From an uncultured bacterium (GTDB lineage Bacteria; Patescibacteriota; JAHJAL01), in contig CALKWM010000003.1 of assembly GCA_938004065.1 (NCBI GenBank), positions 1 through 56,158 on the forward strand: 56,158 bases of DNA, read 5' to 3'. The notes under the pieces were generated by a model, which was not told the origin of the DNA, ran no database searches, and saw only the letters and a program-made list of their open reading frames with translations. Below, in pieces: positions 16,106 through 56,158 of the stretch. Position numbers and translations under genes: made by a program. The number at the start of each line of letters is the position of its first letter. Positions within the stretch are counted from its first letter, which is position 1.

Positions 16106-16132
16106 GAAATGAAGAGAAGCGTTTTTGACGAG

Positions 16133-16206
16133 CGGAGTCGACGGGACTCGAACCCGCGACCTCAGCCGTGACAGGGCTGCGTTCTAACCAACTGAACTAC
16201 GACTCC
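16133..16206 (-). tRNA. tRNA-Asp(GTC)
   Basis: GGAGTCG TA GTTC AGTTGGTTA GAAC G CAGCC CTGTCAC GGCTG AGGTC GCGGG TTCGAGT CCCGT CGACTCC G. No CCA is encoded. Confidence 0.9.
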
Positions 16207-16233
16207 AAATAACAAATGTACATGAACCTAACT

Positions 16234-16290
16234 CCCGCGACCTGTCCGACGTAACGTCGGACCGTTCTAACCAACTAAAACTACGACTCC
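16234..16290 (-). pseudogene. 5' tRNA-Asp-like fragment with the anticodon arm replaced by the hairpin GTCCGACGTTACGTCGGAC
   Basis: It shares the acceptor 5' strand, D-arm, variable loop and T-stem 5' strand with tRNA-Asp. The 17-nt anticodon arm is swapped for a 19-nt palindrome, and there is no T-loop or 3' acceptor strand. Confidence 0.6.
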
Positions 16291-51912: not shown

Positions 51913-52066
51913 TGGACCTTAAAGGGACTTGAACCCATGACCTGTCCGACGGTCGCCTTGCGGCTCGTCGGACCGCTCTAGCCAATAAATGGACCTTGAA
52001 GGGACTTGAACCCATGACCTGTCCGACGGTCGCCTTGCGGCTCGTCGGACCGCTCTAGCCAATAAA
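51913..52066 (-). repeat. two tandem 77-nt tRNA-Ala-derived units lacking the 5' acceptor/D-stem strand and carrying a 30-nt hairpin in place of the anticodon arm
   Basis: Each unit reads TTTA TTGGCTAGAGCG [GTCCGACGAGCCGCAAGGCGACCGTCGGAC] AGGTC ATGGG TTCAAGT CCCTT CAAGGTCC A. The period is exactly 77 nt. Confidence 0.85.
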
Positions 52067-52140
<74 letters not shown>

Positions 52141-55555: not shown

Positions 55556-55881
55556 CATCAAAATGACGAATTTACTTCGGCATTTTGATTCTTCAAAAAG
55601 AAAGGGAGAGTATCGTATCGAGAGAGAAAACCTCAGTTATGCTCTCTAATACTGGGCTCCCGCAAAATTACTAGCGAAGCTTAGAATTTTGTGGGATAAA
55701 GGAGGAGCCATTCGACTTAAGTGGAGCGAAAGACGGTTTACCGGCTTACGCGAAACGAGGAGAATGTGCTCCGACGATGAACTGACTCTGTGCCGCTGGG
55801 GACCGACTAACGTGTTATCATGTTTGGTTTACGCCATCATCGCATAACCTTTAGCCTCAAAAGACCAAAGTCGGTTTTTTT
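55556..55881 (+). ncRNA. candidate structured RNA of unknown class (GC-enriched non-coding block)
   Basis: No ORF of 60 aa or more on either strand. It holds several nested helices: GGGAG-AGTAT-GAGAGAG.../CTCTCT-ATACT-CTCCC; CAAAATT/AATTTTG; and ACCGACT/AGTCGGT followed by T7 at 55876-55882. Confidence 0.35.
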
Positions 55882-55950: not shown

Positions 55951-56024
55951 GCATCCGTAGCTCAACTGGATAGAGCGTCTGGCTTCGGACCAGAAGGCTG
56001 AGGGTTCGAATCCTTCCGGATGCA
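55951..56024 (+). tRNA. tRNA-Arg(TCG)
   Basis: GCATCCG TA GCTC AACTGGATA GAGC G TCTGG CTTCGGA CCAGA AGGCT GAGGG TTCGAAT CCTTC CGGATGC A. No CCA is encoded. Confidence 0.9.
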
Positions 56025-56060
56025 TTTAAGAGCAAAATAATTATTTGCTCAGTTTAGTCT

Positions 56061-56158
56061 AGGGTTCGCCCGGGCATTCGCCGGGCGTGGGGCGGATGCC
56101 CCACGAATCCTTCCGGATGCATTTAAGAGCAAAATAATTATTTGCTCAGTTTAGTCTA
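56061..56158 (+). repeat. partial tRNA-Arg copy (T-arm to 3' end plus 37-nt trailer) with two GC hairpins inserted in the T-loop; period 97 nt, cut by the window edge
   Basis: 56105-56158 is identical to 56008-56061. The insert reads CGCCCGG gcattcg CCGGGCG followed by TGGGGC ggat GCCCCA (56067-56103). Confidence 0.85.

Follow-up and report, generated by a model that had tools for sequence, protein, structure and literature searches.

Tandem tRNA tails plugged by a double GC hairpin behind tRNA-Arg(TCG) of a Patescibacteriota bacterium: probable units of a tRNA-targeting GIY-YIG/hairpin element family

The stretch of 56,158 nucleotides analysed here (hereafter the window) comes from an uncultured bacterium of the Patescibacteriota and corresponds to the entire contig C3 (CALKWM010000003.1) of a 1.28-Mb assembly of 41 contigs (GCA_938004065.1). 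It ends in a short array made of pieces of a tRNA-Arg(TCG) gene and of a double GC-rich hairpin (Table 1). The intact gene, called at the same position by both ARAGORN and Infernal (Rfam tRNA, 70.7 bits), is the sole Arg-TCG gene copy in the whole genome. A repeat search established that the array is built on an exact direct repeat of 55 nt with a period of 97 nt, composed of the last 18 nt of the tRNA and a 37-nt trailer; chance origin of an exact repeat of this length is no concern. The initial annotation of this DNA had recognized the repeat and counted it one nucleotide short, as 17 + 37 = 54 nt. No further copy of the unit trailer is present elsewhere in the genome.

Behind the first trailer, the tRNA-derived sequence restarts at the T-stem, reading TAGGGTTCG where the intact tRNA has GAGGGTTCG, and its T-loop is interrupted by two GC hairpins whose stems share flanking CG dinucleotides. 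This second T-arm measures 49 nt, compared with 12 nt in the tRNA, and the net insert is therefore 37 nt, located in the TCGA core of the T-loop. Repeat search and folding thus bear out the partial tRNA copy with a T-loop broken by two GC hairpins that had been described at first; the insert is one nucleotide longer than the 36 nt given then, and the folds give hairpins of 6-8 bp (DNA fold z = -2.4). Folded as RNA, the module gives a three-way junction that an extended T-stem closes. The 97 nt of a unit comprise the final 18 nt of the tRNA, the terminator-like trailer (37 nt), the T-stem 5' strand with TT, and the 37-nt CG-flanked double hairpin. The second unit is devoid of the 5' acceptor strand, the D-arm and the anticodon arm, and it yields no RF00005 match and no match to any other Rfam family at E <= 1, nor any ARAGORN call. 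The hairpin-plugged copies are not functional tRNAs. No open reading frame (ORF) of at least 50 aa lies within 55951-56158.

Table 1. Features of the tRNA-Arg(TCG) array and of related loci in the same genome
Feature	Location	Strand	Details
Intact tRNA-Arg(TCG)	C3:55951..56024	+	Anticodon 55985-55987; T-loop TTCGAAT 56005-56011; central CG 56007-56008
55-nt repeat, first copy	C3:56007..56061	+	Second copy 56104-56158
Unit trailer 1, 37 nt	C3:56025..56061	+	Terminator-like hairpin GAGCAAA/TTTGCTC at 56030-56050
tRNA-derived restart	C3:56060..56068	+	(T)AGGGTTCG / TAGGGTTCG; T-stem 5' strand (G49 -> T) and T-loop TTCG
Double GC hairpin	C3:56067..56105	+	CG-[CCCGGGC ATTC GCCGGG]-CG-[TGGGGC GGAT GCCCCA]-CG
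Copy of the tRNA's final 18 nt	C3:56104..56121	+	T-loop 3' part, T-stem 3' strand, 3' acceptor strand, discriminator
Unit trailer 2	C3:56122..56158	+	Identical to trailer 1; terminator-like hairpin 56127-56147; contig end
GIY-YIG nuclease ORF, 82 aa	C12:62-307		PF01541, 51.4 bits
Cassette at tRNA-Ser(GCT)	C20:59480-60010		5' tRNA fragment with double hairpin in D-loop, 92-aa GIY-YIG ORF, second fragment
Arg(GCG) array	C20 to C33		At least 2 units; 108 nt; same double hairpin
Val(GAC) array	C39 from C15		At least 2 units; 78 nt; same double hairpin, opposite orientation
Met array	C13 from C22		At least 4 units; 62 nt; single hairpin
Leu(GAG) array	C28, complete		3 units; 61 nt; single hairpin

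It had been suspected that the array continues past the window edge, and the assembly graph indicates that it does. Ten contig-end pairs of the assembly overlap by exactly 55 nt, from which we deduce that the assembler used k = 55. Contig C3 terminates exactly at the end of the repeat, on a 55-mer already present inside C3, and the repeat length of 55 nt, being equal to k, is therefore a lower bound. Contig C16 opens with the 55-mer C3:56072-56126 and then diverges into another trailer. The hairpin-bearing copy has two successors in the graph, either the unit trailer, which loops back, or the C16 trailer, through which the path leaves the array; the number of hairpin units before this exit must therefore be at least two, the smallest graph-consistent order being tRNA, trailer, unit, trailer, unit, C16. 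As read, the array comprises the native tRNA, at least two tandem 97-nt units, and the displaced 3' end with the native trailer on C16, from which unit trailer 1 differs after the first 5 nt. The 3' tail of tRNA-Arg occurs in the genome only on C3 (twice) and at C16:35. The join between C3 and C16 is borne out by synteny: a gpsA-like gene follows tRNA-Arg(TCG) in three genomes of the same family (G001, G003 and G005), and its orthologue in this genome is found on C16 from position 1313 onward, the genes downstream of the array on C16 being SPFH and gpsA-like. We looked for an integrase-bearing island bounded by the repeat, which would have made the locus an ordinary integration site, and found none; the array leads directly to the syntenic genes on its downstream side. 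Arrays of this type contain at least five of the contig junctions of this assembly.

The double hairpin is dispersed in the genome and, as established by a pattern search, confined to T-loops. The pattern GCATTCGCYGGGCGTGGGGCNNNTGCCCCA is present in seven copies, on C3, C12, C16, C20, C33 and C39 (two copies), all seven of which lie between TTCG and CGA of the T-loop TCGA core, in either orientation with respect to the tRNA, and none is intergenic; both orientations fit because the TCGA core is palindromic. A CG dinucleotide is present on both sides of the hairpin pair and between its two hairpins. The C12 copy has CCCAGC/GCTGGG where the other copies have CCCGGC/GCCGGG, a compensatory double change, and the hairpin loops vary (GGAT, GTAT, GAAT, AAAT) with the stems kept. 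The exact pair was found in none of 150 relatives and in none of the genome contigs searched; it is present in one metagenome contig (L048), inside the T-loop of a 5' tRNA copy, where an ATG frame (MYYV..) begins 10 nt after the pair and ends after 12 codons at the contig end.

Similar arrays are located behind other tRNA genes of this genome. Those of tRNA-Arg(GCG), tRNA-Val(GAC), tRNA-Met and tRNA-Leu(GAG) follow a common plan, in which the intact tRNA precedes tandem 5'-truncated copies with a GC hairpin in the T-loop (Table 1). The tRNA-derived parts differ from locus to locus; the double hairpin is common to Arg-TCG, Arg-GCG, Val-GAC and the C12 locus. The tRNA-Arg(TCG) array is one more member of this recurrent class. 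Hairpin-substituted partial copies had also been reported at other tRNA genes of the window, and they were found again at 51913-52140, where two units of tRNA-Ala(GGC) have their anticodon arm swapped for a GC hairpin, and at about 16222-16290 on the minus strand, where a pseudo-copy of the 5' two-thirds of tRNA-Asp lies 5' of the tRNA-Asp gene (16132-16206). In the Asp pseudo-copy, the anticodon arm is swapped for the hairpin GTCCGACG-TTA-CGTCGGAC, which is the stem of the tRNA-Ala units at 51913-52066. The distal units of the Leu and Ala arrays are the more decayed ones. Another type of hairpin-plus-fragment locus, also assembly-breaking, is found at tRNA-Lys(CTT) (C39:137159-137347 and the end of C9), where a terminator and a hairpin (TGAGGGGAAAGTTTGTTTCCCCTCA) come after the tRNA and precede a partial copy that starts in the anticodon stem.

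The C12 copy of the hairpin pair stands next to a gene. The T-loop that it occupies belongs to a degenerate 5' tRNA copy, and about 20 nt downstream of the pair begins an ORF encoding a single-domain GIY-YIG protein (Table 1) whose best solved relatives are the UPF0213 proteins 1zg2 and 1ywl. At its stop codon, this ORF overlaps with the beginning of a second tRNA-like copy, and the other flank leaves the contig. In the cassette on C20, the GIY-YIG ORF overlaps the intact tRNA-Ser(GCT), a second hairpin-bearing D-loop fragment lies downstream, and the double hairpin differs from the C12 type.

We searched 401 Patescibacteria genomes for homologs of the C12 nuclease and, separately, for the module formed by the T-arm and its hairpins (genomes and loci of this survey are designated by G and L numbers). 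Nuclease homologs are present in 198 of the 401 genomes (49%). A tRNA gene on the same strand lies within about 250 nt of the homolog at 22 of the 29 loci that were fetched, compared with a few per cent expected, as a rough estimate, for a random gene. Several of these loci have the same order, i.e., a 5' tRNA copy up to TTCG, hairpin-CG-hairpin, CGAxTCC, a short leader, the nuclease and an intact tRNA. The module search was blind to the nuclease, using the pattern GGTTCGCC..GGCG..CGAWTCC with the reversed pattern as a control. It produced 24 matches in 20 genomes, against two control matches; the match in G188 is a look-alike without hairpins. The nuclease is carried by all 18 genuine module-bearing genomes, and also by the genome studied here, compared with 49% overall, which establishes its association with the module at the genome level. 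The association also holds at the level of loci, the nuclease being directly adjacent, in a fixed arrangement, at 6 of about 21 module loci. In G054 (L053), the cassette has modules on both flanks; L055, L057 and L069 show the order module, nuclease, tRNA, and at L050 and L056 the tRNA has the nuclease on its upstream side and the module on its downstream side. About nine loci (L051, L054, L058/71, L059, L061, L064-67) resemble tRNA-Arg in having units without an ORF immediately after an intact tRNA. An ORF-less 5' version (L049, in G308) has the same hairpin pair as the ORF-bearing cassette of the same genome. The closest nuclease homologs, those of G088, G309 and G342 (60-64% identity), come with a hairpin core, GCG(A/G)ATGC, that is common with the pair of this genome. 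In units of other genomes, an encoded CCA is copied faithfully along with the 3' tail.

The distribution of the units is patchy, with presence/absence polymorphism at the same site among close relatives, both at the Arg loci and at tRNA-Leu. The comparison with relatives advised in the initial annotation gave a single, clean tRNA-Arg(TCG) in all five genomes of the same family (G001-G005), and tRNA-Arg(GCG) is clean in G001 and G002. The congeneric genomes G113, G152 and G170 (genus g102) have zero, one and two modules at tRNA-Leu, respectively, and the two tandem modules of G170 (L058) each have a different terminator-bearing trailer. Together, these unlike trailers and the 0/1/2 series of the congeners indicate that units can arrive singly and not only as local duplicates. 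In G088, the nuclease gene and an intact tRNA-Ser lie between two pieces of a different tRNA-Ser, a 5' fragment (GGAGAGG..) and a 3' fragment (..CCTCTCCGCCA), an arrangement that would fit an element splitting a tRNA gene and supplying a replacement. At tRNA-Leu(TAA), we also observed that L058 (G170) and L059 (G152) have the same two stems with loops exchanged and reverse-complemented (ATGAA/CTTGT vs ACAAG/TTCAT); it looks as if the loops could flip, or the element invert, with the stems retained.

These data, all of them derived from sequence comparison, lead us to favour the view that the tRNA-Arg array probably consists of ORF-less units, either non-autonomous or left as footprints, of a family of selfish elements combining a GIY-YIG nuclease with hairpins and targeting tRNA genes of Patescibacteria. 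The double hairpin marks the cassettes with a single-domain, UPF0213/Ssn-like GIY-YIG nuclease of about 80 aa. More tentatively, T-arm::double-hairpin modules and GIY-YIG proteins of about 80 aa could be the two parts of a selfish system, so far undescribed, that has the universal T-loop of tRNA genes as its target and whose ORF-less units would spread in trans and pile up behind essential single-copy tRNAs across the Patescibacteria; the hairpin loops (GCGAATGC) might then mimic the T-loop TTCGAAT and serve as a handle for the protein. The nuclease, acting in trans, would break or nick the tRNA gene near the T-loop, and repair would copy a module-bearing template, with the tRNA body as left homology arm and the 18-nt tail past the hairpin as right arm. 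Such repair would add a replacement for the 3' end together with a terminator and a spare T-arm plugged by the hairpin, leaving the essential tRNA intact and pushing the old tail downstream. Units could be stacked by break-induced repair, and repeated breaks, out-of-register repair or slippage between the repeats of at least 55 nt would change their number; the units at the tRNA-Arg locus would be identical because of such out-of-register repair or slippage.

Several points weigh against this interpretation. No nuclease gene lies in or beside the tRNA-Arg array, so that the link consists only of the shared hairpin and the comparative statistics. An intact T-loop stays in every cassette, which leaves the cut target and the escape from self-destruction unaccounted for. 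GIY-YIG enzymes cut DNA and do not join it, and the step placing the hairpin is not explained. The two unit trailers at tRNA-Arg are identical, and a simple tandem duplication explains the copy number equally well. Finally, the downstream flanks of G113, G152 and G170 do not align, so that the element boundaries are not fixed there.

The identical trailers are precisely what is predicted by an alternative in which a tRNA tail was locally duplicated and a GC palindrome of the REP/MITE type was then independently inserted, either by a Y1 HUH transposase/RAYT or with no enzyme, the GIY-YIG gene being a bystander. Like the elements of the REP/REPIN-RAYT and IS200/IS605 systems, those described here are short GC-rich palindromes, often paired, with dispersed non-autonomous copies and one enzyme gene, and probably acted upon as single-stranded DNA hairpins. 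An IS200-type Y1 transposase is indeed encoded in this genome (C12:7978-8325, minus strand; IS200/IS605-type, 154 aa, on the same short contig as the tRNA-linked GIY-YIG gene), and 13 of the 18 module-bearing genomes have Y1 transposase matches. However, the Y1 transposase of this genome is flanked by unrelated hairpins (ACCACCAG..CTGGTGGT) and not by the T-loop pair, 5 of the 18 module-bearing genomes have no Y1 transposase at all, and none adjoins a module. By contrast, the GIY-YIG gene is present in every one of the 18 and abuts 6 of about 21 modules in a fixed arrangement. Plain duplication would not give each unit of G170 a different trailer, and the hairpins of this genome are strictly in T-loops (7/7 copies, 0 intergenic) instead of at intergenic ends, their insertion coming with a duplicated gene tail and their associated enzyme being of the GIY-YIG rather than the HUH type. 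The REP/RAYT explanation is weakened by the unrelated Y1 end hairpins and by the lack of Y1 in those five genomes, and we consider the duplication scenario as a whole unlikely.

It is still more doubtful that the units are working RNA parts co-transcribed with the tRNA, e.g., processing or stability signals, terminators, or decoys for tRNA-binding enzymes or toxins. Compensatory change keeping the stems while the loops vary, faithful copying of the 3' tail (elsewhere including the encoded CCA), the terminator-like hairpin in each unit and the three-way junction closed by the extended T-stem would all suit such a role. Yet the units have no 5' acceptor strand and no tRNA score at E <= 1, close relatives lack them, distal units decay in the Leu and Ala arrays, and a terminator-like trailer behind the intact tRNA would limit read-through. 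Moreover, relative to the tRNA the hairpin pair is found in either orientation, which suits a site at the DNA level better than one RNA shape.

The array also recalls the integration (att) sites of mobile elements in tRNA genes, with a direct repeat of the tRNA 3' end and a gene kept intact through an element-borne tail. It could accordingly be read as a relic attL/attR of tyrosine or serine integrases targeting the T-loop, whose island was later deleted and whose crossover dinucleotide was the central CG. Around a CG, the T-arm forms an imperfect inverted repeat, as does the hairpin pair, in the manner of serine-integrase sites, and the genome encodes four large serine recombinases, some of them beside tRNA or tmRNA genes. 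The repeats are, however, only 97 nt apart, with no cargo and no integrase, and the hairpin is located inside the T-loop and not at an island end. No further copy of the tRNA tail exists in the genome to bound an island, the array abuts syntenic downstream genes, and about 12 kb separate it from the closest recombinase, on C16. Serine recombinases are missing in 8 of the 20 module-bearing genomes and are neither adjacent to a module nor consistently near one; tyrosine recombinase matches number 1-3 per genome, mostly with one strong Xer-like gene, and are not adjacent. Furthermore, the order B-CG-hairpin-CG-hairpin-CG-B' is no attL/attR product. Considering the missing second tail copy, island and adjacent recombinase, we reject this explanation as very improbable. 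The faintest candidate is an assembly artefact, in which poor assembly quality would have produced a chimera or a wrong join at the contig end. In its favour, the contig ends exactly at a k = 55 repeat and Illumina adapter is present at the ends of other contigs, but we reject it for the sequence itself because complete arrays exist inside contigs (Leu-GAG on C28, Met on C13) and in other genomes, the same plan recurring in many independent genomes, some closed, while units differ by point changes and k-mers spanning the hairpin and each trailer must exist in the reads; only the 55-nt length (= k) is accepted as a product of the assembly.

The probable GIY-YIG/hairpin family is most reminiscent of the Ssn family of single-domain GIY-YIG site-specific single-stranded DNA nucleases, whose cognate hairpin repeats (NTS/SRM) flank the nuclease gene and are also dispersed (Nat Commun 2025, PMC11893778). 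In both cases, the protein is a tiny one-domain GIY-YIG (a class of about 80-100 aa; here 82 aa on C12, away from the tRNA-Arg locus) and the GC-rich hairpin repeats of 20-50 nt lie beside the gene and are dispersed without it (here in seven copies). The hairpin repeat flanks the nuclease gene on its upstream side on C12 and on both sides in G054, where the layout repeat-gene-repeat is that of an insertion sequence, and the hairpin sequence and the nuclease appear to change together. In contrast to the Ssn repeats, the hairpins described here are only present inside the T-loops of partial tRNA copies, as a CG-linked pair, and are tied to duplicated tRNA gene ends; tRNA is mentioned zero times in the Ssn paper (PMC11893778). 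The best solved relatives of the C12 protein are UPF0213 proteins. Besides the tRNA-linked genes, the genome encodes three more mini GIY-YIG proteins (C14:2536-2760, C38:24105-24338 and C38:28608-28829) that are not tRNA-linked and whose genes are flanked by inverted repeats, GTCATTCCC../..GGGAATC or GTCATCCTGAAC../..GTTCAGGATGAC. These closely resemble the published NTS-ssnA-NTS layout and form a set separate from the tRNA-linked genes.

Free-standing GIY-YIG homing endonuclease genes occur in tRNA gene clusters, e.g., segB of phage T4, and in fungal mitochondria there are mobile endonuclease ORFs that bring along a duplicated gene end. The cassettes described here appear to share with them a selfish nuclease gene that lives next to or within an essential gene for RNA or protein, the supply by the element of a substitute for part of its target gene so that function is kept, and a patchy presence among close relatives. 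They differ by the conserved hairpin at the junction, by the tandem stacking of units and by a protein that has no DNA-binding domain beyond its approximately 80 aa; in addition, the tRNA-Arg locus has no ORF, the nuclease being beside its target only elsewhere (C12, C20, L053, L055-57, L069). We found no description of hairpin-plugged tRNA-tail arrays or of tRNA-lodged mini GIY-YIG cassettes in the literature searched, which covered few subscription journals, and this class of tRNA-lodged GIY-YIG/hairpin cassettes appears to be undescribed. If our interpretation is correct, mini GIY-YIG/hairpin pairs would have a new lifestyle, surviving in essential tRNA genes while rebuilding them, and the arrays would be a recurrent source of partial tRNA copies and contig breaks in the genomes of ultra-small bacteria. 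Their small nucleases may read a T-arm-shaped DNA structure, which could be tested with oligonucleotides and possibly provide a tool.

Some other features of the window and of the genome deserve mention. Just 5' of tRNA-Arg(TCG), an ORF-free, GC-enriched block (55556-55881) ends in a strong terminator (..AGCCTCAAAAGACCAAAGTCGGTTTTTTT). Its 3' end is kept at the same place in G001 and G002 (L011 and L012), and no Rfam family reaches threshold in it; it is a candidate small RNA without a name. The tRNA-Arg gene at C20:66954-67029 has the anticodon GCG for CGY codons, instead of the usual bacterial ACG, which suggests decoding without A34-to-inosine editing. A gene for a large serine recombinase (556 aa) at C13:94890-95321, about 1 kb from a tRNA-Asn gene (C13:93696-93767), may mark another tRNA-targeted island, distinct from the hairpin arrays. 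Many contigs (C1, C4, C8, C17, C20, C27, C29 and C36) end in heptamer tandem repeats, (GCAATAA)n or (GCAATAT)n, and these repeats, too, break the assembly, as a class of their own. The ends of C10, C28, C35, C38 and C41 contain Illumina adapter sequence (e.g., GATCTACACTCTTTCCCTACACG and GTGACTGGAGTTCAGAC), indicating that the assembly was not adapter-trimmed. Finally, the GC skew is extreme, about -0.38 across all 56 kb of the window and +0.3 to +0.39 in other contigs, which far exceeds the usual bacterial strand asymmetry.

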